A stretch of DNA of 48,617 nt from Candidatus Yonathbacteria bacterium (GCA_016215205.1 JACRKU010000029.1:1-48617), one strand, 5' to 3'. Numbered from the stretch's first letter, positions 1 to 13,741 are shown. The notes: generated from the letters alone by a model not told the origin. Translations and numbers: made by a program.

Positions 1-2
1 CA

Positions 3-1682
3 AATCCGAAAAGCAAGGAACATTTTTTCTTTTTGGGGTTGCCGAGTGAAGCGAGGCAGTGGCGGAACGATACGAGCGTACGATTTAGTTTCAAGCCACC
101 ACGCGCTCCGCGCGTGCCTCATTCGGGATTCTGCTGGAAATAAGTCCGAACTTTTTGGTATAATGACCACCAAAGATGATTTTTTGTCAGCAAAGTGCTG
201 ATTTAGTTCGTAGATGACTCCTAATTTCGTGGTTCCAAATCCTTTACCACGCTCATACGGCACACCCTCGGGGAATACCAGCTTCTGGAACTTCGGTTGT
301 AGTTGTGGCACAAGGTCAAACCATTGTCGGCCAAGGTCGGTTATAAACTTGGTGGCATAAATTAACGCGGCCTCAATATCAAATTGCTCAATCCTTGCTT
401 CGCTTAGGGAAATCTTGGTAGTGGCAAATTCGTTCTCCATTTCTTCTTTACGTTCAACAAATTCCTCTTTGGTATAGGACCCGTCCTCTCGCATTTCGTA
501 GATACGTTTTTTCTTTGCCTCGATAAGCTCTAGTTGTTTTGTCCATTTCTCGGCTTCAAGTTCAAACTTCTTACCTTTCTCTTTCCACGCATCGAGTACG
601 CTCTCTTTAAATATCTGTAGCCAATTTTCTTTTGGTGTTATCCGTTCCAGATGAGCTAAGAACTCTTTTTCAAGTTCGAGTTTTGGTATGCCTTTGCCAA
701 ATACGGCACATTCTTTATTTAGGCAGTGGTAATAGGAATATCGGCCACCATTACCTCGAGGCGAGCTTCCGGTGAGTGCCCTCGAGCAAACTCCGCACAT
801 GACCGTTCTTCTAAGAGGAAAGGTTGGATTATATTTGTTGTACTTCATCATCGGCCTCTTTTTACCGGATCGGATAAGAAGAACCTGATACATTTCTTCT
901 TTCGTGATCATTGGCTTATGTTGACCATCGACGTCTTTGCCAGTCCACGGATTGGCAATTATGCCAGCATAAAACTTTAGGTGTTTGCTAAAGAGTCTGT
1001 CTATCAGCTGGGGAGTACTTTTCTTGCCGGTGATATCTTTCAAACCCCACTCATCTAGCTTGCGAGCTAGTCCTACTTGGGAGTGCAGTCCCATACCATA
1101 TTCTCTTAATCCTCGTTGAATGATTGGGAATATCTGCTCATGTGGCGGATCAGGTTGAGTCTTTTTCTCACCACGCTTCTTGAAGTTGGCACACTTATAT
1201 CCTATCGGTGGCTTCCATGGGAATATGCCTTGGTTGATTCGTGCCATCATTCCATCACTACAGCGTTGCTTACGTATTGCATTATCAAATTCGGCGATAC
1301 CGGCAAGGAATGTCTCTAATAATTTTGCTACAGGTTCATTGCCGATTGGCTCGGTAACGGAATGAAGGGTAACTCCATAGGTTGCGAGGATTTTTCTTAT
1401 GGCGAAGTGGTCATCGGCATTTCTAGCAAATCTATCTACACGCAAAACAACAAAGGCTTGGACCTTATCTTTATTCTTGCGACAAAATTCCAACGCCTCA
1501 AGAAATTTCTTTCGGTTCTGAAGACTCAAGTCTTTTGCGCTTTGGCCTTCCTCGCAAAAAACTAGGTCAATTTCAAGACCTTTTTCTTTGCAGTATTTTC
1601 GGCAAAGTTCCTCTTGGTGTTCCAGTGAGGTTCCTTTTACCTGTTCATCGCTTGATACTCTTGTGTAGATTACTGCTTTCAT
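3..1682 (-). CDS. Large serine recombinase (resolvase + recombinase + Zn-ribbon + coiled coil); open to the window edge, so absent from the ORF track
   Basis: Manual translation from ATG 1682: MKAVIYTRVSSDEQ (catalytic Y-x-R-V-S-S), LRVDRFARN, GIFPWKPPIGY, CGVC...HCLNKEC Zn ribbon, then KSSLV at 182-168. No in-frame stop in the stretches I translated, including 3-242. Confidence 0.92.
   Translation of the reverse strand, partial: MKAVIYTRVSSDEQVKGTSLEHQEELCRKYCKEKGLEIDLVFCEEGQSAKDLSLQNRKKFLEALEFCRKNKDKVQAFVVLRVDRFARNADDHFAIRKILATYGVTLHSVTEPIGNEPVAKLLETFLAGIAEFDNAIRKQRCSDGMMARINQGIFPWKPPIGYKCANFKKRGEKKTQPDPPHEQIFPIIQRGLREYGMGLHSQVGLARKLDEWGLKDITGKKSTPQLIDRLFSKHLKFYAGIIANPWTGKDVDGQHKPMITKEEMYQVLLIRSGKKRPMMKYNKYNPTFPLRRTVMCGVCSRALTGSSPRGNGGRYSYYHCLNKECAVFGKGIPKLELEKEFLAHLERITPKENWLQIFKESVLDAWKEKGKKFELEAEKWTKQLELIEAKKKRIYEMREDGSYTKEEFVERKEEMENEFATTKISLSEARIEQFDIEAALIYATKFITDLGRQWFDLVPQLQPKFQKLVFPEGVPYERGKGFGTTKLGVIYELNQHFADKKSSLVVIIPKSSDLFPAESRMRHARSAWWLETKSYARIVPPLPRFTRQPQKEKMFLAFRI
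156..164 (+). promoter_or_regulatory. Extended -10 promoter motif TGGTATAAT pointing at the left junction
   Basis: Perfect TGn-TATAAT; predicted start ~170-171. Confidence 0.5.
167..170. repeat. Candidate left attachment core (CCAC, context GACCACCA)
   Basis: Shared with GTCCACAA at 12107-12114; lies at integrase codon 505. Confidence 0.65.
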
Positions 1683-1755
1683 ATTTTTGTAAGGCCTAGA
1701 TTGCAAACACACCCTATACTATTTCTGTCGACAGGCTAAGCTCGGTTGCCCACAG

Positions 1756-2187
1756 CTACTTACTGGTGCTTTTCCGCTTTATTTTCTCTAGTATCTTTTC
1801 AAGCTCGAGATACTGCCCGGTGCCATCGGCTTCATCCTCCGGTTCTTTGTTCACTCCAGTTTTGCCAAAGCAGTAGTCGAGGATAGTTTTAGCGGCTCTG
1901 AATTTCATTGTATCTTTTTTACTTCCCATGAGGGCAATGATCATGGTAGCGGCCACCTCGACCTTTTTCTTAAATATACTATCGACCACTGAATCGCACA
2001 TTGCATTCGTTTCCTTTTCGTAAGCATCGTACTCGTCTTTGAGTAAGCCACTCGGGCGGAACCACCTTTTTACCGTCACCGGCGAGACTAGGAGTAATTG
2101 TGCTATTTCGGGATAGGAAAATCCCTCGTATTTGAGATGAACTGCTTTCTGGTATTTTTGATTTTTTATGTCTATTGTTTTTGTCAT
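1756..2187 (-). CDS. HTH protein resembling a phage terminase small subunit
   Basis: N-terminal HTH (GFSYPEIAQLLLVSPVTVKRWF) plus TerS-like helical motif AATMIIALMGS..DTMKFRAAKTILD..FGK. Confidence 0.5.
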   Translation of the reverse strand: MTKTIDIKNQKYQKAVHLKYEGFSYPEIAQLLLVSPVTVKRWFRPSGLLKDEYDAYEKETNAMCDSVVDSIFKKKVEVAATMIIALMGSKKDTMKFRAAKTILDYCFGKTGVNKEPEDEADGTGQYLELEKILEKIKRKSTSK

Positions 2188-2191
2188 ATGG

Positions 2192-2307
2192 GTATCATTT
2201 AGTATCGTTTGTGGTAATTAACTTTCTCGTTTTTGGTGTTAGTTAGTGTTAGTTGGTGTGAGTACTTTTCCTCAAAATGTTGCCGTTTGTTGCGGATTGT
2301 TGCCGAT
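2192..2307. repeat. Three arrays of 10-bp tandem repeats (candidate iterons/origin)
   Basis: GTATCATTTA/GTATCGTTTG (2192-2211); GTGTTAGTTA/GTGTTAGTTG/GTGTGAGTAC (2236-2265); TGTTGCCGTT/TGTTGCGGAT/TGTTGCCGAT (2278-2307). Confidence 0.75.
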
Positions 2308-3105
2308 TTAGCCACTTTCACCGGCTATTGTGAGGAGTGAGTTAAAATATGCACCCTTCTTTTGGATCGACCTTTCTGGACTATCACGCATGAGCTTGTA
2401 AGTTTGCTCAAGCTTGGCCAATCCATGCTTTCGGAGTGCTGAAAGCATGAAGCTCATATCAACTTCCTCTAGGTACCGAGCAATCTCAAGACACTTCTCC
2501 TCTTCAAAGGTTCTTGGACTGAAACTTCTTACGGGACGACGAGTCGATCGATTGTTTTTATTTTCTTTCTCGTTATCGTTCTTAGGACTTCTGCCAGACG
2601 AACTTTCAGAAGTGAAAGAAAACCTTTCTACCAAAGCATTTTTATCGCTTTCCAACTTCTGCCGAACATCACCTACTTCTGTCGGTGCCTCTGCCAGAGA
2701 TTGCTCATCAGTAGCGTCCACACTTCTGCCGGACTTCTGTTCAAAGCGATGTTCAATATACTTAAATGTGCCGTCGGATAAGGGATAATTGCCGATATCC
2801 ACATGGAACGAACTTCTGCGACCTTGTTGTCCAGCAAACCATACCCACTTCTTCCGCTTAAGGTTTAACATCAGCCGGTTGATATGGTTCTTGGAGTATT
2901 TCTCTTTGAAATCTTTTGAAAGACCGGCATAACTTACTTGGGCCCGGCCGTTCCGGGGATTGGCGTTGACCCAAAGCCAGACCAAAACCGAGTATTCTTC
3001 AAACTTCAAATAACCGTCTACAAGGGCGGTTTTAATGCTTCGGGGAAGCTTTACGTAGTCGTTATTGTCTATTTTGAAGGGTAGATTTTCCATATTCATA
3101 TTCAT
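2308..3105 (-). CDS. Putative replication initiator (N-terminal wHTH, low-complexity linker, small helical C-domain)
   Basis: YVKLPRSI..EEYSVLVWLWVNAN..SYAGLS..INRLMLNLKRKKWV wHTH and C-terminal SIQKKGAYFNSLL, typical of phage/plasmid Rep architecture. Confidence 0.55.
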   Translation of the reverse strand: MNMNMENLPFKIDNNDYVKLPRSIKTALVDGYLKFEEYSVLVWLWVNANPRNGRAQVSYAGLSKDFKEKYSKNHINRLMLNLKRKKWVWFAGQQGRRSSFHVDIGNYPLSDGTFKYIEHRFEQKSGRSVDATDEQSLAEAPTEVGDVRQKLESDKNALVERFSFTSESSSGRSPKNDNEKENKNNRSTRRPVRSFSPRTFEEEKCLEIARYLEEVDMSFMLSALRKHGLAKLEQTYKLMRDSPERSIQKKGAYFNSLLTIAGESG

Positions 3106-3120
3106 TCGGCCGGACCGGCT

Positions 3121-3384
3121 TTAATTCATCGCATCGTTATACATAAGCGATTTAAGTTCTTTAATGGCCGACACAAATTCCTTAGCGTTGACTTCGACCA
3201 AGCCCGCAAAGAAAGCGCTTACCAACTGGGGACGATCCGGTTCATTGGTAAAAATAAAATGAAACCGGCGTGAGTCGGCTTTGTCTATGCCCAGCAATCT
3301 ATATCCCTTGGCGACGAGAAAAGCGGCCGCGTAGAAGTCGCTGGTAGTAAAATTATTGTTGTCCGGCTGGTTTTTCATTTTCAT
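3121..3384 (-). CDS. DUF5659-like small protein
   Basis: FTTSDFYAAAFLVAKGYRL.GIDK...RFHFIF...FFAG.VEVNAKEF..AIKELK matches my recollection of this CPR-element family. Confidence 0.65.
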   Translation of the reverse strand: MKMKNQPDNNNFTTSDFYAAAFLVAKGYRLLGIDKADSRRFHFIFTNEPDRPQLVSAFFAGLVEVNAKEFVSAIKELKSLMYNDAMN

Positions 3385-3547
3385 TATCTTTAACTTCTTT
3401 TTCTTTCTTGGTTTTTATTCTTTCTGCGTGCCACTGTTCGAAGATGACTTCAGCGAGCATAAAAAATCCGTCTCTGATTTCCTCGATTTGTTTATCAGAG
3501 AGCTTGGGATCGTTAACCAATTCTTTTACCCGCTCGACGCTTAACAT
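3353..3547 (-). CDS. Small hypothetical element protein
   Basis: Likely start ATG 3547 (MLSVERVKELVNDPKLSDKQIEEIRD); overlaps the next gene in operon fashion. Confidence 0.55.
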   Translation of the reverse strand: MLSVERVKELVNDPKLSDKQIEEIRDGFFMLAEVIFEQWHAERIKTKKEKEVKDNENEKPAGQQ

Positions 3548-3678
3548 GTATTCATCGTATCGAGATGGGTGCGCCTCTTTACATACTCTTTCGCTGAATT
3601 TGCAACACAAAAAAGACGACTGTTTTAGTCGCTTCGGTAGAAACTTATTAACAAGTACCTTGAGAGTATCTTGCGATC

Positions 3679-4350
3679 CTATTCCTTTTTGAGAATTACA
3701 TTCGGATTAATCCGGTAGCCTGAATCCTGCCAGCCCACAATAAATTCGGATACTTTCAATTTCTTATGTACCATGCGCTTTATGGCCTGCACCGCACTTT
3801 GAACTGATTTGATACTTGAAAGATCAGTTAAATCAATTAGAGTTTTGGTCGGGATATACTTCCGGCTTGTCATCAAAGCCATAACAAGCTTCATTCGTCC
3901 GCTCGAGTTCTCCATACGGAAAGTATATTGGCTTTTAGGCTCACGATATAGTTCGCCGTCGGCTGATATGTAAACAGTGACCATTGGACCGGCCGGAGCT
4001 ACAGCTTTTTTCGTTAATGCCTCAGCTAAAGAAATGGCCGCTTGTCTGGCAAATGTTTTTATAAAATGTTCGTCATATTCAGTCAGTCCTTCAAACTTGC
4101 TTGTCCTGCGCTCTAAAAGTACACGAATACTTTTTACTTCATGTTTTGTTTCAACGATCTCCTTCGTCAGATCGATGATTGCTGATTCATTCTTTTCAAT
4201 AACCTTGTCAGCTTCAAGGATACCAGCCGATTCCAGCGATGACCGGAGTATATTTTTGGTATCCCCAATAGAAAAGGTATACCGGCTTTCTATTGCTACT
4301 TTTCTTCCTGTTGATGTGACAGGTTTAGTCTTTTTCATTTTCATACTCAT
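3679..4350 (-). CDS. Protein with C-terminal OmpR/PhoB-type winged-helix DNA-binding domain
   Basis: C-terminal KLVMALMTS.KYIPTKTL...SVQSAVQAIKR...FIVGWQDSGYRIN. Start is probably 4350, 4344 or 4338, downstream of the leftward promoter. Confidence 0.6.
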   Translation of the reverse strand: MSMKMKKTKPVTSTGRKVAIESRYTFSIGDTKNILRSSLESAGILEADKVIEKNESAIIDLTKEIVETKHEVKSIRVLLERRTSKFEGLTEYDEHFIKTFARQAAISLAEALTKKAVAPAGPMVTVYISADGELYREPKSQYTFRMENSSGRMKLVMALMTSRKYIPTKTLIDLTDLSSIKSVQSAVQAIKRMVHKKLKVSEFIVGWQDSGYRINPNVILKKE

Positions 4351-4366
4351 TTTTACTCTCAAAACC

Positions 4367-4417
4367 ATTATGACAAAAGACGGCGATTTTGACAATGAAC
4401 TTGGAAAGGGATAAAAT
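4367..4417. promoter_or_regulatory. Back-to-back sigma70 promoters with overlapping -35 boxes
   Basis: + strand: TTGACA(4389-94)-N17-TAAAAT(4412-17). - strand: TTGTCA(4395-90)-N17-CATAAT(4372-67). Confidence 0.7.
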
Positions 4418-4448
4418 GCTATCAAGACTAAAAAGTCAGTTTAATTTT

Positions 4449-4640
4449 ATGGCCGAAATCGAAAAACTTTTAACCATTGAGGAAATCGCCGAGATATTGC
4501 GAGTGCATACTCGCACCGTAACCCGATATATTGAATCGGGCCGGTTGAAGGCATCCAAGCTGGGAGTCTGGAGAATCAAACAGTCTGATCTGAATGCTTT
4601 TCTTGAGGAGACCAGTAACGTAAAGAAAAAGAAGAAATAA
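4449..4640 (+). CDS. Excisionase-family HTH_17/MerR-like DNA-binding protein
   Basis: LLTIEEIAEILRVHTRTVTRYIESGRLKASKLGVWRIKQSDL; ATG 4449 lies downstream of the promoter. Confidence 0.85.
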   Translation: MAEIEKLLTIEEIAEILRVHTRTVTRYIESGRLKASKLGVWRIKQSDLNAFLEETSNVKKKKK

Positions 4641-4643
4641 TAT

Positions 4644-6191
4644 ATGGCATCACTAAACTGGATTGGAAAAGAAGCTGTAGTAAACCACGATAAGGAGGTG
4701 CCTTTTAAGTTGCTGAAGAAGGTTAAGACAGCATCCGTTGGTGACAATTCTCAAAATCTTATAATCCACGGCGATAACTTGGAGGCCTTGAAGGCATTAA
4801 TGCCTCATTACTACGGCAAAATAAAGTGCATTTATATCGATCCACCTTATAACACTGGTAATGAGGGGTGGATATACAACGATAAAGTTAATTCTCCCAA
4901 AATCAAGCAGTGGCTCGGTAAGGTTGTTGGCCGAGAATCAGAAGATTTAACACGGCACGATAAATGGCTTTGTATGATCTATCCTAGGTTAAAACTGTTA
5001 AGAGATTTACTGACAGAGGATGGTTCTATCTTTGTTTCAATCGATGATAACGAGCACTGCAATCTACGGTTGGCCATGGACGATATCTTCGGGGAGATAA
5101 ATTTTGTAACGACCATAATTTGGCAGAAGAAATATACACAAAGTAACGATGCAAAGTATTTTTCAAATACGCACGACTTTATTATTTGTTATGCAAAAAA
5201 TAAAGAAAATAAGAATTTCAAAATAAACCTTCTGGCCAGAACAGAGGAACAAGATGCACGCTATAAAAATCCCGATAACGATCCTCGTGGAGTCTGGATG
5301 ACGCAACCTTTGCACGCAAAGAGTGGTACGGATAAAACATATGAGTTCACTTTCTCAAACGGTGTAAAGTGGAAACCACCCGCTGGCACGTTCCCTCGCT
5401 ATAGCATCAATACCCTAAAAGAAGCTGACGCTGGAGGCACAATTTGGTTTGGAAAAAATGGGAATGCTGTTCCTCGCCTTAAGAAATATCTTGCTGAAAT
5501 GAAGCAGGGCGTGATTCCTAAAACAATATGGTTATATGACGAAGTCGGAAGTAACGATGATGCCAAGCGAGCTATAAAACATCTTTTTGATGATAATCCT
5601 TTTGATTCTCCAAAACCTCCATCATTAATTAAGCAGATCATTAAACTTTCTAGTAATCCCGACGATACAGTTTTGGATTCGTTTGCTGGCTCTGGCACGA
5701 CTGGCCATGCGGTTTTGGAGTTGAATAAAGAGGATGGCGGTACTCGCAAATTTATCATGGTTGAGATGGAGGATGTGGTAGCAAAAAATATAACTGCTGA
5801 GAGAGTCAAAAGAGCAATTAAAAAATATGGTTACAAGGATGGTTTTGAATACTGCGAGCTCGACAAGCCACTTTTTAACGAACATGGCCAAATTGAAGAA
5901 ACTTGCGACTTTAGACAGTTTGCTACTTATATTTATTTTACTGAGACCCAAACGAATATAGACCCAAAGAAAATTGATGAGAATTTCATCGGCGAACTTG
6001 AGACAACCGAATATTATCTACTCTACAAAGGTAAGAATAAGAACGATCTTGATAAGTCATTTCTCAAAAAGATTAAGGATACCGATAGCAAGAAAGTGAT
6101 ATACGCAGACCGGTGTCTGATTGATGACGATACGCTCGCAAGACACAATATCGTCTTCAAGCAGATCCCTTATGAAGTAAAAGTCTACTAA
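4644..6191 (+). CDS. mod: Type III restriction-modification methyltransferase (N6-A, beta class)
   Basis: IIHGDNLEALK, motif IV IYIDPPYNTG, motif I VLDSFAGSGTT; directly upstream of res. Confidence 0.92.
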   Translation: MASLNWIGKEAVVNHDKEVPFKLLKKVKTASVGDNSQNLIIHGDNLEALKALMPHYYGKIKCIYIDPPYNTGNEGWIYNDKVNSPKIKQWLGKVVGRESEDLTRHDKWLCMIYPRLKLLRDLLTEDGSIFVSIDDNEHCNLRLAMDDIFGEINFVTTIIWQKKYTQSNDAKYFSNTHDFIICYAKNKENKNFKINLLARTEEQDARYKNPDNDPRGVWMTQPLHAKSGTDKTYEFTFSNGVKWKPPAGTFPRYSINTLKEADAGGTIWFGKNGNAVPRLKKYLAEMKQGVIPKTIWLYDEVGSNDDAKRAIKHLFDDNPFDSPKPPSLIKQIIKLSSNPDDTVLDSFAGSGTTGHAVLELNKEDGGTRKFIMVEMEDVVAKNITAERVKRAIKKYGYKDGFEYCELDKPLFNEHGQIEETCDFRQFATYIYFTETQTNIDPKKIDENFIGELETTEYYLLYKGKNKNDLDKSFLKKIKDTDSKKVIYADRCLIDDDTLARHNIVFKQIPYEVKVY

Positions 6192-6195
6192 TACT

Positions 6196-8463
6196 ATGGA
6201 ACTTAAAAAATACCAAAAAAATACATTAGAAACGCTCGAACAATTCTTGAAAGAACTGCGTAAGGCTGGCCTCAAGTATGCTTTTATGGGCATCACTGAA
6301 AAGCCCTATCATGCCGAGGCATTTGGTGAGGTTCCTTTTGTTTGTATTAAAATCCCAACCGGTGGTGGAAAGACCCTCGTAGGTTGCCATGCAATAGAGA
6401 AAATTATGACTGGCGCGCTCCATCATAAGTTGGACCGAGGGATAGTGCTTTGGTTTACGCCCTCTGAAGCAATCAAGACTCAAACACTCAAGAAGTTTAA
6501 AGACCGGAAAGACTGGCATCGTAGGGTTCTTGATGAAGCGTTTGATAACAGCGTAAAGGTATTTTCAAATGAAGAAGCATTGAGTATTCGCAAGGAAGAT
6601 GTAAACGATAATCTTTGCATCGTCATCTCCAGCCTTGAGGCGTTCCGCAAAGAAAAATCTCTCCAGAATAAGTACAAGGTGTATCAAGAAAACGGTACAC
6701 TCCTGACTCATTTTGAGAACATAGACGAGCCGGATTATCTTGAGCGTGACAGTGAAGGATCGGTAATTAATTCACTAGCAAACGTTGTCCGATTGAGTAA
6801 TCCGCTTATCGTGATCGATGAAGGTCATAAAACGACAACCAAACTATCAATTGATTTCCTGAAAGACTTAAATCCAAGCTTTATTGTTGAATATACCGCA
6901 ACACCACGCAGTGAGAGTAATATTCTGGTTGAGATTCATGCTTCAGAACTTAAGGATGAGCAGATGGTGAAAATTCCTATTGTGCTTGAGAGTTCGGCTC
7001 AATGGCAGAATTCAGTGACTAGAGGAATTGAGAAAAGGATTGAACTTGAGAAGGATGCTAAGAAAATTAAAGGAGAATATATTCGTCCGATTGCTCTATT
7101 GCAAGCACAGCCTAAGAGCAAAGACGGTCATACTGTTACCGTTGAACATATAAAAGATTTCTTGCTTGAACGAAAGATTTCAGCCGACGAAATTGCGATC
7201 AAGACTTCCGAGAAAAATGAACTTGAGGGAGTCGATCTCTTTAGTAAGAGTTGCAAAATTCGTTACATCATTACTGTCAATGCTTTGGCAGAAGGATGGG
7301 ACTGTTCCTTTGCTTATATTCTTGTCTCGGTTGCCAACCTTGGATCAAAGATTGCAGTTGAGCAGATTATCGGACGCATCATTCGTTTGCCTTATGCAAA
7401 AAGGAAAGCTAATGAAGACTTCAATAGGAGTTATGTCTTTGCTTCGGCAAGAGACTTTAACGAAGCGGCCGGTCAAATCATTTCCGGACTTGAAAGTAAC
7501 GGATACAGCAAGTCTGATCTTATCAGTGCCGACAAGAAAGATGCGACTTATGAGCTCGAAGCTAAAAAGGCCGTATCCGATGTGCTCAAGGTGCCGATGA
7601 TGGCCCTCGAAGGCGATCAGTTATCTTTTGAGGACTTGATTGGAAATGACTTTGAGCTTGCTAACCAAGATCATAAGTTCGAGTTCCAAATCCATTACGA
7701 TAATGATGGCAGAGCGATTATTGATATCCAGAAGGACAATGAGTGGATGCGTGGAGCCCAGATGTACTTGAAGTTGCGATACTCCGATAAAAACTATACA
7801 AAAAGTGAGCTGGTGCAGTGGCTGGATAAAAAACTGCGTTTTCCGTTACTCGAAAAATCAGACAAGGTGAGCTTTCTTGATAAAGCTATCGAGTATCAGC
7901 TTAAAACCCGTACTCTATCCGAACTATCCGTAAACCGTTACGTATTGGCTGATCGAATGAGCGAGTTTATTAATGGGGTTCTGGAAAAGTACGCAAAGGA
8001 AAAGTTTGATACGCTTTTACAAAAGAAGAAAATATCAACGAAGCCATTTGAGGCTTTCCCAAACACCATCTCTCTCAAACAGGCGGTGCCACAAGAATTC
8101 AATAGAAATTATTACGAGAAGATAGATAAGCTCAATGGTGAGGAGCTGAGTTTCGTCCAGCGTCTCGATCTGGACACTCTCCCCAACATTAAGTATTGGG
8201 TTCGTAGCCGAGAAAAGGTTGATCCGTTTTATATTCAGGGCTGGAAGCGAGGTAAGTTCTATCCCGATTTTATTGCGGTCACAAAGAAAGGTCAGATTAT
8301 AGCTCTAGAGTGGAAGGGTGCGGACCGGATCAGTAATGAAGATACAGCCTATAAGATAGAAATTGGAGAAGTATGGTCGAAGCTCGGTGGAGGAAAACTA
8401 CACTTTTTCTTAGTTCATACCGGGAATGTTGAAGAGACGCTAAGGGCGGTTAAGGAACTATAA
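6196..8463 (+). CDS. res: Type III restriction endonuclease subunit (SF2 helicase + PD-(D/E)xK nuclease)
   Basis: Walker A IPTGGGKT, VIDEGH, YTATP, LAEGWD, EQIIGRIIR, C-terminal FYPDF...LEWKG. Confidence 0.9.
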   Translation: MELKKYQKNTLETLEQFLKELRKAGLKYAFMGITEKPYHAEAFGEVPFVCIKIPTGGGKTLVGCHAIEKIMTGALHHKLDRGIVLWFTPSEAIKTQTLKKFKDRKDWHRRVLDEAFDNSVKVFSNEEALSIRKEDVNDNLCIVISSLEAFRKEKSLQNKYKVYQENGTLLTHFENIDEPDYLERDSEGSVINSLANVVRLSNPLIVIDEGHKTTTKLSIDFLKDLNPSFIVEYTATPRSESNILVEIHASELKDEQMVKIPIVLESSAQWQNSVTRGIEKRIELEKDAKKIKGEYIRPIALLQAQPKSKDGHTVTVEHIKDFLLERKISADEIAIKTSEKNELEGVDLFSKSCKIRYIITVNALAEGWDCSFAYILVSVANLGSKIAVEQIIGRIIRLPYAKRKANEDFNRSYVFASARDFNEAAGQIISGLESNGYSKSDLISADKKDATYELEAKKAVSDVLKVPMMALEGDQLSFEDLIGNDFELANQDHKFEFQIHYDNDGRAIIDIQKDNEWMRGAQMYLKLRYSDKNYTKSELVQWLDKKLRFPLLEKSDKVSFLDKAIEYQLKTRTLSELSVNRYVLADRMSEFINGVLEKYAKEKFDTLLQKKKISTKPFEAFPNTISLKQAVPQEFNRNYYEKIDKLNGEELSFVQRLDLDTLPNIKYWVRSREKVDPFYIQGWKRGKFYPDFIAVTKKGQIIALEWKGADRISNEDTAYKIEIGEVWSKLGGGKLHFFLVHTGNVEETLRAVKEL

Positions 8464-8477
8464 CTAGATGCCCAGAC

Positions 8478-11400
8478 ATGCTTAACAAACATGCTATTAG
8501 ATTCAAAGAATCCTTATCCGACTTCAGGATAATAACAGCAAACCTAGTGGTGCTGGTTAAAACCGCCTTTTTAGGTATTTTAAGTGCGGAAATTTGGGGC
8601 TTATCACTTGCCATCGCCTACAAGTTGAACGGATGGATTTCTTCCAATGACTATGAATATAAAGCAATAGCAGTTTGCGTTGCAGGTACTTTGTTTCTAG
8701 TCGCATACCTGCTGGCACGTGGAGTATTTGCTGACTCAAAGAAAATCATCCGAAGTTGCCGTATTGATGTGCTAATCATCTTCTGCTTCGGAATCTGGCT
8801 CAGTATTGCGTGGGGTGGTTTTCTATCGATATGGATTTCAAAGATCGTTTCCTCTGTTAACATTACTCAGATACTTACTATCCTTTCCGGACCTTTTATT
8901 TTGGGGACTCTAGTGATGGGACGGCAGTTGCTTTGGAAAGATAAGAAGACTGATTCTTCGCTAGTTACTGATATCGAGCTCAAGAGTAGAGATAACGATC
9001 TACTAAACTTTACGGGAAAAGCCAATGCATTTGCGGAGCGTGTATTCAACGGAGGATCACCAGAGAGCTTCGTGTTCGGGGTTGATGCTCCTTGGGGAAT
9101 AGGTAAATCAACTTTTATAAATTTCTGCAACGAGTACTGGGAGGAGAAGTACACAGACGGAGTGGTAGTTTATAAATTCAGTCCACTTCGATATTTGGGA
9201 TCGGCAAATTTGCTGGAGGTCTTTATTGATGGCTTGATACATGCCATTCAAAAGAATGCATTCATCCCTGAAATAAAACCCTTAATATCTCGCTACACTC
9301 GCTTACTCAAAGAGATAAAACGTTTTTCGCTATTCGGTTTTACTCTCCCGACCTTTGTAGTGGACTATACAGCCGACGAGGCATTCGACGACTTGAGTGC
9401 CGTTCTAAAACGATTTCCAAGGAAAGTCATTATAGTTATTGATGACTTGGATCGAATCAGTTTTGCAGAAATAAAAGACATACTGTTTGTTATAAGAAAA
9501 AGTTTTGCATTTCCGAATGTTTCGTACGTCATTTGTTATGACACAGAGAACATAGGCGTACTTGAAGCCGATTCTCCCGATGTTGAAAAGGTTGGTGAGT
9601 TTTTAGAAAAGTTTGTGAACATAAAAATCAGCTTGTACTTAGATAGAGAAGACTTGAAGAACTATGTGTCGGAGAATCTTGAGAGTGCACTCACTACGAG
9701 TATTGTCGATCCCTTGCCAGTGCGCCAGGCAATTGGAGGACTACTCGAGATATACGACTCGTCAATGTATCACAGGTATCTCCCTTTTATTGGTGATGTA
9801 AGAAAGTTGAAACGGCTCATCAATACCGTCATGATGTTTGACCTCCAGTCCACGGACTTTCAAAGTAGTGATTTTAATAAACGAGACTTGGTAAATCTTT
9901 TGCTCATCTATATCCATTACCCGAGCGTCTTTAGAAAGATTTATGATACTGAGACAAAGGGTGGTAGAGGATTTTTCTCATTGGTAATACCTTACGATGA
10001 AGGTTATCCGAAAGATGAAACAGGGACACGAGGAAGATCGTCATCTTCTGATTCTTCCTACAAGAATTCAACCCACTATCACGACTACTTAAAAGAGCTG
10101 GAATTTACTGAAGACACCCCTCAGCGTTTTCTTTTAGACCAAGTATTTAATGTGGACGTACGCTTGAAGACCGATAAAAACAGTCTCTATGGTAACGAAT
10201 ACGCTAACATAGATAAAATCCCAGACGATGTACGCACTTCGCTCGCCTGTTTTAACGGTGGTTGGACAAATGGCAGGAATCTTGAGACGTATTTGGATTT
10301 AATTGTGAACCTCTCAAAACCTGTCGATGTTGATCAACATAAATTTTATACTCAATGGAGAGATAAAATAATTAATAAAACAGTCACCATTGATACTGCG
10401 TTTGCAGATGAAAAGTTTACATATAGTGAGGGAGAGAACAGGAGAGAAAAGCTGTGGCGTATATTGGTGAACAACGCACGAGAATTGCCAAGTGATATTG
10501 CAAAAGAAATAATTACCTATCTTTTGAAGACAATACCCGAGTATTCCTTACTTGAAATGGGAGACCCAAATGTAGGAATGGGATTGCGACACAATTTGGA
10601 TTATTTCCTCACCAGACTACTGAACGATGCCGGATGGATTGATCCACAAGGTAAACATTCAAATAATGTTCAGCCCCACATCGCTGAAATTGCCGAATGG
10701 GTTTTTGGCGAAGGTAGACACGCAGGCAGTGGTGTACTCGCAACACTTTCAGAAGAAAATCGAGGTGTATTAGGAATCCACGACTTACTACTTTTTAGGT
10801 TATCTTGTAGCGCAGACCGTGGAGGCGACATCTTTGATTTATCTCGAGCCGTTGCAGAACACGCAAATCAGAACGCCCCCTCCGCAGGTTCTACAAGAGA
10901 TATCGCTCGTGAAGAGATGCGTGAGATATCCCAAAGGGTGTTCGAGATATTTAATACGAGATACATTCTTCCAAAGAAAAATATCTTTGCAGAAATTGAC
11001 GCTCTACAAACATCCAATCTCGTTGGTAAATATGACAACTTTCTTAAGCAGAAGATTACTGATGGCATATTCCAAGCTACGGACATAGACAAGAAATCCG
11101 TTGAGCTAAAAACTCGTGTGGGTGCTTTTATTCTGTACCAAATGGCGAACGCAGAAATCAATCTCGGAGCCGGATGCGGATTTTATGATCCTACCGGAAC
11201 TGAGGATAAGCACACCATCAGAGACTTAGTTAACGATTATCTTTTTGAACACTGCTTTGACCCAAAGAAAACTAAAAACACGGAATACTTCATTGACTAC
11301 TTGTTCAGAAACTTTGCTAGTGCATTTGCTTCTGCACGAGAAGATGGATTGAAATATATACCAAGTATTAATGAATTTATCAAAGTGTTGGATAAGGTGA

Positions 11401-11615
11401 AGCTTTCAACTTTTTGGCAGAAACATGGTACAACTTTCAAAAACCTTAAACTTGAGGATAAAGAAAAAGTCGTATTCGTGGGTAACGATGAAGCTTCGTA
11501 TAAAAAATATGTCCCCATGGTTTATAAAGTCTTAGACGATAACGTTACCGAAGTCACAAAAGTAGCCCCAACTTCTGTTGTGATTCCTGCTTCTAACCCT
11601 GTTATTGATGCCTAA
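8478..11615 (+). CDS. KAP-family P-loop NTPase with N-terminal transmembrane helices and a long uncharacterised C-terminus
   Basis: About 4 hydrophobic segments in the first 155 aa, Walker A GVDAPWGIGKST, Walker B VIDDLDR, FLEKFV and DVRKLKRLIN KAP motifs. Confidence 0.88.
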   Translation: MLNKHAIRFKESLSDFRIITANLVVLVKTAFLGILSAEIWGLSLAIAYKLNGWISSNDYEYKAIAVCVAGTLFLVAYLLARGVFADSKKIIRSCRIDVLIIFCFGIWLSIAWGGFLSIWISKIVSSVNITQILTILSGPFILGTLVMGRQLLWKDKKTDSSLVTDIELKSRDNDLLNFTGKANAFAERVFNGGSPESFVFGVDAPWGIGKSTFINFCNEYWEEKYTDGVVVYKFSPLRYLGSANLLEVFIDGLIHAIQKNAFIPEIKPLISRYTRLLKEIKRFSLFGFTLPTFVVDYTADEAFDDLSAVLKRFPRKVIIVIDDLDRISFAEIKDILFVIRKSFAFPNVSYVICYDTENIGVLEADSPDVEKVGEFLEKFVNIKISLYLDREDLKNYVSENLESALTTSIVDPLPVRQAIGGLLEIYDSSMYHRYLPFIGDVRKLKRLINTVMMFDLQSTDFQSSDFNKRDLVNLLLIYIHYPSVFRKIYDTETKGGRGFFSLVIPYDEGYPKDETGTRGRSSSSDSSYKNSTHYHDYLKELEFTEDTPQRFLLDQVFNVDVRLKTDKNSLYGNEYANIDKIPDDVRTSLACFNGGWTNGRNLETYLDLIVNLSKPVDVDQHKFYTQWRDKIINKTVTIDTAFADEKFTYSEGENRREKLWRILVNNARELPSDIAKEIITYLLKTIPEYSLLEMGDPNVGMGLRHNLDYFLTRLLNDAGWIDPQGKHSNNVQPHIAEIAEWVFGEGRHAGSGVLATLSEENRGVLGIHDLLLFRLSCSADRGGDIFDLSRAVAEHANQNAPSAGSTRDIAREEMREISQRVFEIFNTRYILPKKNIFAEIDALQTSNLVGKYDNFLKQKITDGIFQATDIDKKSVELKTRVGAFILYQMANAEINLGAGCGFYDPTGTEDKHTIRDLVNDYLFEHCFDPKKTKNTEYFIDYLFRNFASAFASAREDGLKYIPSINEFIKVLDKVKLSTFWQKHGTTFKNLKLEDKEKVVFVGNDEASYKKYVPMVYKVLDDNVTEVTKVAPTSVVIPASNPVIDA

Positions 11616-11616
11616 A

Positions 11617-11799
11617 ATGAAACGCCAGTTCAAAAAATTACCAGAAAGTATAGACCTGCAAAAAGCCGAAGAGATATTTTCGGACCGGTTAGCCGAGCTT
11701 ATTGTTATGACGCTGGATTATCAGTATGAGCAGAAGCTTAAAGCCAAGGCCGATCCAAAAGAAGATGTGTCGGGTGAGGAAAAAGTTAAGCAATTATGA
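11617..11799 (+). CDS. Small hypothetical protein
   Basis: ORF abutting the KAP stop; helical, charged (EEIFSDRLAELIVMTLD). Confidence 0.45.
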   Translation: MKRQFKKLPESIDLQKAEEIFSDRLAELIVMTLDYQYEQKLKAKADPKEDVSGEEKVKQL

Positions 11800-11808
11800 C
11801 TCAGTGTA

Positions 11809-11839
11809 ATTTGCTTAACATCGCTTGAGTTAAGCAAAT
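11809..11839. terminator. 11-bp inverted repeat (terminator or protein-binding site) ending the rightward operon
   Basis: ATTTGCTTAAC-N9-GTTAAGCAAAT. Confidence 0.5.
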
Positions 11840-12013
11840 CGTCCCACGCTCTCAAATTTGGTCTTACGGCTTGGACCGGGTGCAATAGGTGTCAAACATT
11901 TACTCTTGGCACAAAGCTCGCTACAAGGGCAACCAGTCGGGCAGAAAGCGGGTTAGTTAGAGTTGGTTCGGATGAGTACGTTCACAAGGGTCTCAAAATT
12001 CGCTACAATGGCA

Positions 12014-12108
12014 TTATATGGTAGCAAGCTGGGCTTCGTAAGCAGATTTTAGTTGGTGCCAGTCGTATAACTCTCGCATTATTTGGTTCCAGTTAATTTG
12101 TAAGTAGT
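12014..12108 (-). other. Detached 3' end of the integrase gene (31 codons + TAA) at the right boundary
   Basis: After GTG(12112-10) reads DYLQINWNQIMRELYDWHQLKSAYEAQLATI*; in frame with integrase KSSLV when the CCAC cores are joined. Confidence 0.7.
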
Positions 12109-12112
12109 CCAC
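12109..12112. repeat. Candidate right attachment core (CCAC)
   Basis: Partner of 167-170. Confidence 0.65.
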
Positions 12113-12158
12113 AACGGCAGGCGGTAATGCGAAAGCATTACCGCCTTTTGCCGTTGTG
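12110..12158. other. 21-bp GC-rich hairpin with GAAA tetraloop (terminator-like or small RNA)
   Basis: CACAACGGCA-GGCGGTAATGC-GAAA-GCATTACCGCC-TTT-TGCCGTTGTG. Confidence 0.75.
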
Positions 12159-12307
12159 AGACCCGAGGAGATTCGAAAGGCGCAGGCGTGTACACACAAT
12201 AGTCTGCTGTGTTTGCGAGACCATTTCTACAAAACTTGCATAATTTGAGGAAAACACTAATATGTAACTTAGGTATTGTACGTTTCAAAACAACCAAGGA
12301 GAACGCG

Positions 12308-13741
12308 ATGTCAGCCAAAAAAGAGGCGATGTTTGGGAAAATTGTTGCTTACAATGAACGCGACAAAAAATTGTTTGTACTCGACACCAACGTGCTTATG
12401 CACGATCCTGTCAGCATGTTCAGTTTTGACGAACATGACATTTATCTGCCGATGGTAACATTGGAAGAACTCGACCACAACAAGAAAGGCATGACCGAAG
12501 TTGCGCGCAACGCTCGTCAAGCAAGTCGTTTTCTGGACGACATTGTCAGCGGATATGAAGGAAAGATTGACGAAGGTTTTCCTTTGGCATCGCAAAATTC
12601 TCGCGCAACCGGCCGTCTGTTTTTGCAGACCAGCTTGATCGACAGCAATCTCCCCAGCTCTCTGCCAATCGGCAAAGCCGATAATCAGATTCTCGGAGTT
12701 GTGCTCCATCTGGCGAAAGAAAAAAAGAATAGGCAACAAGTTGTCTTGGTTACTAAAGACATCAACATGCGTATCAAGGCACGCGCACTTGGTCTTACAG
12801 CAGAAGATTACCGGAGCGACAAGGTGCTCGAGGATACAGACTTGCTTTACTCGGGTATGCGCGAACTGTCTCCGGACTTTTGGGAAAAACACGGCAAAGG
12901 CATGGAATCATGGACGAATGCCGGTAATACGTATTATCGCATCAAAGGACCTATGGTGGAGAGTCTCCTTGTTAATGAGTTTCTCTATCAGGAGAATGAT
13001 AAGCCGCTTTATCTTATCGTCAGGGATGTTAATGGCGCGAGCGCGGTGCTCTCAACAGTCAAAGATTACGCCCATGCTAAGAATAATGTTTGGGGTATCA
13101 ACACGCGCAATCGCGAGCAAAATTTCGCTCTCAATGCGCTCTTGAATCCGGATATTGATTTTGTCACATTGTTGGGTCAGGCCGGCACGGGTAAAACCTT
13201 GCTGACTCTGGCTGCAGGGTTACATCAAACACTGGAGACTAAAATTTATTCGGAAATCATTATGACCCGCGTCACGGTGCCGGTCGGGGAAGACATCGGT
13301 TTTTTGCCGGGTACCGAGGAAGAAAAAATGACACCGTGGATGGGCGCGCTAGAAGACAATCTGGATGTGCTTAATCATAATAGCGATGAGCGCGGCGATT
13401 GGGGGCGTGCCGCTACGCAAGACTTGATTCGTTCACGCTTAAAGATTAAATCGCTTAACTTTATGCGCGGACGGACATTTCTTGAAAAGTACCTCATTAT
13501 CGACGAGGCGCAGAACCTCACGCCAAAACAGATGAAAACTCTGATAACGCGTGCTGGTCCCGGTACGAAGGTGGTCTGTTTGGGTAACATTTCCCAGATT
13601 GACACGCCATACCTTACCGAAGGCAGTTCCGGGCTCACGTATGTCGTGGATCGTTTTAAGGGTTGGAAGCATAACGGCCATGTAACGCTCATGCGCGGCG
13701 AGCGTTCACGGCTGGCGGATTATGCCGCAGAAGCATTGTAA
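12308..13741 (+). CDS. PIN-domain PhoH-family ATPase
   Basis: PIN motif FVLDTNVLMHDP, VTKDINMRIKA, Walker A GQAGTGKT, RGRTF, IIDEAQN. AAGGAG SD at 12296-12301 supports ATG 12308. Confidence 0.92.
   Translation: MSAKKEAMFGKIVAYNERDKKLFVLDTNVLMHDPVSMFSFDEHDIYLPMVTLEELDHNKKGMTEVARNARQASRFLDDIVSGYEGKIDEGFPLASQNSRATGRLFLQTSLIDSNLPSSLPIGKADNQILGVVLHLAKEKKNRQQVVLVTKDINMRIKARALGLTAEDYRSDKVLEDTDLLYSGMRELSPDFWEKHGKGMESWTNAGNTYYRIKGPMVESLLVNEFLYQENDKPLYLIVRDVNGASAVLSTVKDYAHAKNNVWGINTRNREQNFALNALLNPDIDFVTLLGQAGTGKTLLTLAAGLHQTLETKIYSEIIMTRVTVPVGEDIGFLPGTEEEKMTPWMGALEDNLDVLNHNSDERGDWGRAATQDLIRSRLKIKSLNFMRGRTFLEKYLIIDEAQNLTPKQMKTLITRAGPGTKVVCLGNISQIDTPYLTEGSSGLTYVVDRFKGWKHNGHVTLMRGERSRLADYAAEAL

Follow-up and report, generated by a model that had tools for sequence, protein, structure and literature searches.

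An attachment site inside a large serine integrase gene is predicted to exchange the enzyme's C-terminus when a Patescibacteria defence island integrates

Here we describe a mobile element at one end of contig JACRKU010000029.1 of Candidatus Yonathbacteria bacterium (GCA_016215205.1; genome G000, a 611-kb metagenome bin of Patescibacteria type in 29 contigs), and in particular its large serine integrase gene, which lies there in two pieces. The window, by which we mean the whole stretch of 48,617 nt that was analysed, is the entire contig (C20). The first piece, codons 1-505, occupies 168..1682 on the minus strand; from its start at 1682 it runs to ..FADKKSSLV, the last residue being Val505 (GTG at 170-168), beyond which no stop interrupts the next 55 low-complexity codons (VIIPKSSDLFPAESRM...) before the contig ends at base 3, the left flank being short because the contig stops 167 nt past the junction. 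The second piece is an orphan integrase 3' end lying 11.9 kb away on the same strand, where GTG at 12112-12110 is followed by DYLQINWNQIMRELYDWHQLKSAYEAQLATI (codons 506-536) and a TAA stop that ends at 12014 (12014..12109, minus strand). CCAC on the plus strand, GTGG on the integrase strand, stands at both junctions (167..170 on the integrase side, 12109..12112 on the tail side) and is read as the crossover core. Joined there, the two pieces give 505 + 31 = 536 aa, and the circular-form junction predicted from the sequence is ..TCATCTTTG-GTGG-ACTACTTAC.., all at coordinates that agree to the base with those proposed in a first-pass annotation of this DNA. A tail profile built without the window's own tail matched 12226..12017 with E = 8.8e-12 among 17,634 six-frame pieces covering the whole 611-kb genome, with a runner-up at E = 3.2; the genome thus searched holds one integrase of the 168..1682 family and one tail.

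Every recognised domain of the integrase, namely the resolvase-type catalytic, recombinase, zinc ribbon and coiled-coil parts, lies in the 505 of 536 codons that stay contiguous after integration. PF00239 matches residues 3-152 (E 8.7e-28), marking an N-terminal resolvase-type catalytic domain with a serine nucleophile (YTRVSS motif, S10 invariant in 58 homologues); PF13408, the recombinase zinc ribbon, scores 25.0 bits at residues 290-345, slightly below its cut-off of 25.3, and PF07508 is found in homologues. Sequence matches in PDB were 3guv and TP901-1, and since a PDB sequence search with the C-terminal half gave a match confined to the catalytic domain, a fold search was needed. For the intact homologue P0006 (74% identical), an AlphaFold model built on an alignment of 58 sequences, with a mean predicted local distance difference test (pLDDT) of 79, matches full-length SPbeta, Bxb1, phiC31 and LI integrases in Foldseek, with E down to 2e-18. 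In this model long helices span residues 351-399 and 404-428, residues 498-509 (..GDKSQLV/DFVRTS; here and below a slash marks the crossover) are disordered with pLDDT < 50, and a single helix takes up residues 511-531. The crossover is thus placed in codons that specify a flexible linker and are under little constraint from the protein, and the tail is modelled as one amphipathic helix on a linker tether.

Homologues divide at the same residue. A search with the 536-aa join against 5.8 billion proteins returned 615 matches, and C-termini were read in the best 120, among which coverage of the join is bimodal, at either ~94% (stop at residue ~505) or 98-100%. The tail ..KSxLV-D-x4-W-N-Q-I-I-x-E-L-x2-W-Q-x-L.., the same as that of the orphan piece, is present in 62 of these 120 and is exactly the W-N-Q-I..E-L..W ending that the first-pass annotation had anticipated in intact homologues. 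Another 51 diverge directly after the conserved Val into antisense-tRNA peptides, such as DPRGIEP.. or DPTRFELVTSSLQMRR..., and Val at the break point is conserved in 117 of 121. As judged from this comparison, the 31-residue tail is the ancestral C-terminus of the integrase. All seven tRNA-joined loci that were inspected, including that of the 97%-identical P0002, run into tRNA-Ala with anticodon TGC or CGC, and the 3' end of a tRNA-Ala gene is the usual target of the family.

The split layout recurs in five other elements and one weak case. An orphan tail lies upstream of the integrase on the same strand at a distance of 18.8 kb in G001 (locus L007; integrase 78% identical, Type I restriction-modification cargo), 8.4 kb in a Saccharibacteria genome (L020), 7.2 kb in G357, 9.2 kb in G265 and ~6.3 kb in G051 (a ~7.8-kb element), where the integrase is merely 36% identical; in G028, at ~4 kb, the tail gives a weak match only. 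Orphan tails are kept open in all integrated elements checked. Two distant large serine recombinases of the window's own genome (C4:2637-4280 and C26:2800-1226; 26% identical to the window's integrase) have open reading frames (ORFs) that reach 12-19 nt into the 3' ends of tRNA-Ser(gga) (C4) and transfer-messenger RNA (tmRNA; C26). Both RNA genes occur twice in the bin, and the small contigs C4 and C26 may be strain variants. Taken with these recombinases, the recurrence points to an attP inside the recombinase gene, used at tRNA and tmRNA 3' ends, as a habit at the level of the clade.

Both junctions, the CCAC core and the homologue C-termini bear out the earlier proposal that the element's attachment site, attP, is embedded in the 3' end of the integrase's own coding sequence, with the crossover placed in GTGG, at the codon for Val505. 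The P arm of attP would lie within codons ~496-505 (..FADKKSSL; 171..200, minus strand), in the stretch that is disordered linker in the homologue model, and the P' arm in codons 506-514. Integration leaves 505 codons reading into foreign DNA, with the last 31 codons and the stop parked at the other end of the element, and excision would rejoin the 505 and 31 codons; the free form would encode the enzyme with its tail, and the integrated form, which lacks the tail, encodes 505 residues plus foreign sequence. At the level of sequence this supports the further claim that integration swaps the C-terminus and that excision would give back an uninterrupted 536-aa protein.

The two junctions in the window share only GTGG (4 nt), and the exact 2-nt crossover cannot be placed within this core; in tRNA-Ala loci the common stretch is GTGGAC. 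Integrase-side junctions at tRNA-Ala read GTGGACC-N9-TCGAAC, and in five of seven the T-loop TCGAAC begins at a distance of 16 nt from the first G. The window's P' arm reads GTGGAC-N15-TGGAAC, in which TGGAAC (the Trp-Asn codons; 12086..12091, minus strand) starts 21 nt from the first G of GTGG. This 21-nt spacing is kept in other tail-side junctions and in intact genes, and all tail-side junctions except that of G265 follow the pattern (variable flank)-GT(G/A)G-N17-TGGAAC. For Asn the codon AAC is used in 11 of 11 cases, whereas nearby Glu and Leu codons vary freely at the third base, which argues for constraint on the DNA itself. The outer motif T(C/G)GAAC is thus placed ~5 bp farther from the core in P' arms (21 nt) than in the five tRNA-Ala half-sites (16 nt), and in phiC31 the zinc ribbon domain shifts register by 5 bp between attP and the chromosomal site attB (10.1101/2025.05.02.651858). 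The Trp-Asn codons are probably the P' recognition motif for the zinc ribbon domain, mimicking the tRNA T-loop at the attP register; we infer that this domain is the reader of T(C/G)GAAC. The family's normal attB is the tRNA-Ala 3' end (..GGTCCAC/..), with its T-loop TCGAAC 5 bp nearer the core and the tRNA body left intact. Beyond the core the flank, which is the tRNA trailer, varies between elements with no conservation, and in the attB rebuilt from G001 (..GGTCCAC/AACATGG) the tRNA body is kept and the element supplies the bases that follow.

On the left, integrase codons run into the outer end of a conserved repeat (CE) of ~415-470 nt (1..170, minus strand), whose first ~50 nt encode WSLYQKVRTYFQQNPE and a stop and whose remainder is a structured non-coding arm running off the contig. 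The translation past Val505 matches 46 other Patescibacteria loci that have no integrase there. Copies (L028:9996-10464; L058:51-465 and 2192-2606; ~45 other loci) occur in dozens of Patescibacteria genomes, reach 100% identity over 117 nt in other genera, are frequent at contig ends and sometimes form perfect inverted pairs. Translated, the outer 45-50 nt give (V)xLLYQ[AVI]RTYFQN[KR]-stop in 17 of 20 copies, with synonymous Arg codons (CGA, AGA, CGC) and aligned stops; on this reading, the outer end of the repeat encodes a conserved tail native to a second serine-recombinase family. The window's copy, WSLYQKVRTYFQQNPE-stop, is in frame +1 relative to the integrase, which explains the junk read-through, and carries TCGGAC at 21 nt from the core, a P'-type distance. 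The repeat is strongly structured, as long helices nested in one another, and at least one hairpin shows compensatory changes; G-U counts favour the integrase strand (140 vs 7, a count biased by the prediction) and Alifold energy slightly favours the other (-70.2 vs -65.5). This arm may be the 3' untranslated region of the second recombinase in its circular form. A tRNA or known RNA was rejected as the identity of the left flank: ARAGORN found no tRNA there or elsewhere on the contig, and Rfam gave no family at gathering score for the repeat and noise at loose thresholds. Diverged partial copies of the repeat lie elsewhere in the genome (C9:1346-1640, C14:24277-24385, C29:240-326, C26:3023-3110), and the C9 copy is followed by ..GACACC and a 22-bp perfect hairpin, the end-plus-terminator layout of the rebuilt junction.

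Three different integrases, those of the window, L012 and P0079, are joined to the repeat at the identical base. L012 reads integrase(1-505) / repeat .. 680-aa ORF .. recombinase remnant (zinc ribbon, E 0.004) / antisense tRNA-Ala. This homologue continues as the window does at 3-167, a kind of ending that would speak for this stretch as the native C-terminus; the reading of the orphan piece as the native end stands, because L012 and the window are both fused to the same repeat.

On the right, 12113..12185 (plus strand) carries a terminator hairpin with a GAAA cap and then GAGACCCGAGGAGATTCGAA, which repeats the tRNA-Ala 3' half in inverted orientation. Homologous sequence stands immediately behind tRNA-Ala(TGC) in three same-genus genomes (..GGGTCCAC/AATAGCAGGCG.., hairpin, inverted tRNA 3' half). 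The inverted copy (GAGACCCGAGGAGAATCGAA) follows the hairpin at 12161-12185 and in L080, L081 and L083, so placed that T-arm, hairpin and copy make one very long inverted repeat; it could be the scar of a past recombination or a second, inverted half-site. In same-genus L082 the rebuilt site has a collinear counterpart that spans the junction, with an identical hairpin stem, and in a fourth genome (G417) a repeat-like end, collinear with the rebuilt junction, is joined to the same hairpin. The first-pass annotation had given ATAATGA-CCAC-AACGGCAG as the empty site. As a collinear junction this exists in L082; a virgin chromosomal attB it probably is not, its left half being a P'-type element end and its right half the tRNA-Ala(TGC) trailer. 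It is probably what would remain if the island alone left, an element junction. Around the right-flank gene in same-genus G416 and G410 the neighbourhood differs, with no syntenic empty site upstream. Most likely, judging from both flanks, a tandem array at tRNA-Ala continues beyond the contig end in the order trailer / tail - island - integrase(1-505) / second element / tRNA-Ala, with the contig breaking inside the second element's repeat. Across the whole assembly ARAGORN finds 39 tRNA genes, none for Ala or Pro; in L012 and L043 tRNA-Ala(cgc) lies near tRNA-Pro(cgg), and a tRNA cluster beside repeats is probably missing from the assembly.

We hold with considerable confidence that the best overall explanation of the locus is a defence island with a serine integrase, attP in its own gene and attB at tRNA-Ala, sitting in a tandem array. 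A different account of the left junction, which accepts the split integrase, has a single element inserted in a secondary attB, a repeat-plus-hairpin junction (..GGTATAATGACCAC/AACGGCAGG..) offering a tRNA-Ala-like site (G[A/T]CCAC/AAC) with no tRNA-Ala nearby. Dozens of repeat copies do end beside a terminator hairpin without an integrase, L082 is collinear with the rebuilt site and has an identical hairpin stem, and the integrases of the window, L012 and P0079 are all joined to the repeat at one base. However, the repeat end is the coding tail of another recombinase family together with a P'-type arm, the motif standing at the attP distance of 21 nt and not the attB distance of 16 nt, and the site would therefore be an element junction and not a virgin attB; moreover, the hairpin with its inverted T-arm copy is the tRNA-Ala trailer in three same-genus genomes, and the repeat of L012 belongs to an element that ends at tRNA-Ala. 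We regard insertion into a secondary attB as rather unlikely. Far less credit is due to the idea that the orphan tail is the last remnant of a separate, decayed integrase, unrelated to the intact gene 11.9 kb off. Arrays and remnants do exist (the recombinase remnant of L012, extra orphan tails in L068 and L008), but homology begins in the tail at the very codon where the intact gene loses it, at the same 4-nt core; directly upstream of the tail is tRNA-Ala trailer and not integrase, the exact pairing is repeated in at least five other elements, and the genome has one integrase of the family and one tail. A chimeric contig joined at short repeats is the least credible account and can practically be dismissed: the contig does come from a 29-contig metagenome bin and ends inside a repeat, but a 4-nt core cannot mislead an assembler and the architecture is seen in independent assemblies (NCBI, JGI, ENA, Logan).

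Several observations weigh against the arrangement that we favour, the island in a tandem array with attP in its integrase gene. Neither a degenerate attP pattern nor the exact rebuilt empty site found a match in metagenome contigs (0 each), and no mirror of TGGAAC was seen by eye in the P arm. Because the tRNA-Ala gene is not on the contig, the tandem array is one that we infer, and excision of the window's island alone would be non-canonical, as a P-O-P'-like site would pair with a B-O-P' site. Integrases with intact tails also occur in long chromosomal contigs (2.55-Mb Ignavibacteriales, 149-kb Omnitrophota); attP may lie elsewhere in those lineages, or these may be inner members of arrays. 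Arrays can explain some intact integrases, because an inner integrase rejoins the next element's tail. An array-like layout was found only for G396 and L068. G396 carries a tail, an intact integrase and a second recombinase on one strand. In L068 the intact integrase (10001-11635) is followed 1.75 kb downstream by an orphan tail (13389-13499), near-identical from VRASWKPIMQELKAWH on, and the P' arm is present twice, with one copy joined to the gene and the other to foreign DNA. Among six short contigs with an intact integrase that were checked for circularity, no terminal overlaps were seen. A weaker second orphan tail lies at L008:10393-10548. Intact-tail loci L066, L099 and L100 have a RuvC-like gene upstream, and a TrwB/TraG-type coupling protein gene lies directly downstream in L099 and farther off in the loci L067 and L068; such neighbours hint that tail-bearing forms are mobilisable or conjugative elements.

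Whether the exchange of the tail matters to the enzyme is a separate question, on which we lean slightly towards a swap that alters activity, for example integration proficiency or contact with a partner or the recombination directionality factor (RDF). Neutral compaction, in which attP and the gene end overlap without regulation, the tail helix is dispensable and the tail-less enzyme is equivalent, is a serious contender to which we give a little less than even weight. In its favour, the crossover point is within a linker that is disordered, the tail belongs to none of the known catalytic, recombinase, zinc-ribbon and coiled-coil domains, the 505-codon frame is intact in 51 integrated homologues, and DNA-level constraint can explain part of the tail's conservation (TGGAAC, always AAC). 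Conservation nevertheless extends beyond the ~25-bp arm to E17, L18 and a second Trp ten residues on, at codons that vary; orphan tails stay open in all integrated elements checked; and in the second family another tail is conserved, its Arg codons being synonymous. The extreme C-terminus of phiC31 integrase contacts its RDF, and an equivalent swap in phage Mx8 changes integrase behaviour (PMC6070905). A bolder proposal, which we put forward as doubtful, is that the recombination reaction, by remodelling the enzyme that carries it out, fixes directionality with or without a separate RDF, as a clade-wide control in tRNA-targeting Patescibacteria integrases. On this proposal the circular form alone would encode the integrase with the tethered helix and hence be integration-proficient, the integrated, tail-less form would differ in synapsis, partner binding or stability, and the same 27 bp would serve as protein linker and helix start and as a tRNA T-arm mimic for the zinc ribbon domain.

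The closest precedent is the IntP/IntX pair of Myxococcus phage Mx8, in which, according to PMC6070905 (citing Tojo 1996 and Magrini 1999), attP lies in the integrase coding sequence and integration gives the gene a new 3' end, so that the enzyme is altered and not destroyed. As described there, Mx8 integrase is a tyrosine recombinase of one phage, whereas here a large serine recombinase has 31 residues swapped and hundreds of elements are concerned; the window's integrase shares the layout but, as a serine recombinase, belongs to another family. The 'suicidal' integrases of SSV type in archaeal viruses and plasmids, which a review calls exclusive to archaea (PMC8371274), likewise have the attachment site inside the integrase gene, a compact module and a partitioned gene, but they are archaeal tyrosine recombinases whose provirus copy is inactivated, in contrast to the present case, where all known domains remain on one piece. 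BPs-type integration-dependent immunity in mycobacteriophages (PMC9934374, PMC3694055) is similar in having attP in a coding sequence, a C-terminal segment that is removed and a 3' remnant at the other attachment site, and differs in that the repressor gene is split, the integrases are tyrosine recombinases and the removed part is a degradation tag. With the phage and ICE large serine integrases (phiC31, Bxb1, A118/LI, SPbeta SprA) the window's integrase shares domain order, fold, short attachment sites, a very short core and the 5-bp register difference of the outer motif; in those systems, unlike here, attP is intergenic, a separate RDF sets direction and tRNA genes are not the usual targets. 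In a catalogue covering 6,207 large serine recombinases there is no mention of tRNA targets. A full-text literature search yielded no serine integrase with attP in its own gene, in a literature of which most subscription journals were out of reach, so that this absence is not proof.

One-way DNA insertion in synthetic biology relies chiefly on large serine integrases, whose choice of direction is under active structural study. A large natural clade in which each integration and excision alters the enzyme's C-terminus could reveal control of directionality or stability without a separate factor; it also supplies defined attP/attB pairs that target tRNA-Ala 3' ends. One stretch of DNA may double as protein linker and recombinase binding site, with Trp-Asn codons mimicking a T-loop. 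In the tiny genomes of Patescibacteria, elements of this kind are one of the main ways in which defence systems enter tRNA genes and accumulate in arrays. For annotation, integrases of the clade will be given wrong, tRNA-derived C-termini in nearly every genome.

Between the two integrase pieces lie the element's other genes. On the minus strand, family searches give a helix-turn-helix protein of 143 aa resembling a terminase small subunit (1756..2187), a 265-aa protein with no family match (2308..3105), a DUF5659 protein that is also present in the related element of G001 (3121..3384) and a 248-aa protein with no family match (3679..4425). The plus strand encodes a Type III restriction-modification system, with methyltransferase Mod (4644..6191; PADLOC MTase_III, E 1e-187) and restriction enzyme Res (6196..8463; PADLOC REase_III, E 2e-88), and a KAP-family P-loop NTPase that is PifA-like, of abortive-infection type (8478..11615; family search and PADLOC). 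By its gene content, 168-12112 is a small integrative anti-phage defence island comprising the Type III system, the PifA-like KAP NTPase and a small mobility module. No RDF was identified among the element's small ORFs, which gave no informative matches. A viral origin of the element was rejected, as IMG/VR holds no close relative of the integrase (22-27% identity except for one partial match at 52%).

In the left flank, an extended -10-like element (TGGTATAAT, 156-164) is antisense of the L-Y-Q codons in the second recombinase's tail, and TGGTACAAT in other copies of the repeat corresponds to the same codons. A reading of this flank as plain chromosome, with TGGTATAAT as an outward promoter into a hairpin RNA, was dropped because its bases are the antisense of tail codons ..L-Y-Q..; the promoter-like appearance may be incidental, though it would point antisense into the integrase. 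The non-coding region 11616..12013 (minus strand) would follow the integrase stop in the circular form and is 71% identical over 133 nt to G001 (L007) at the same position. It ends in a hairpin (ATTTGCTTAAC..GTTAAGCAAAT), and its position equals that of the repeat arm of the second family.

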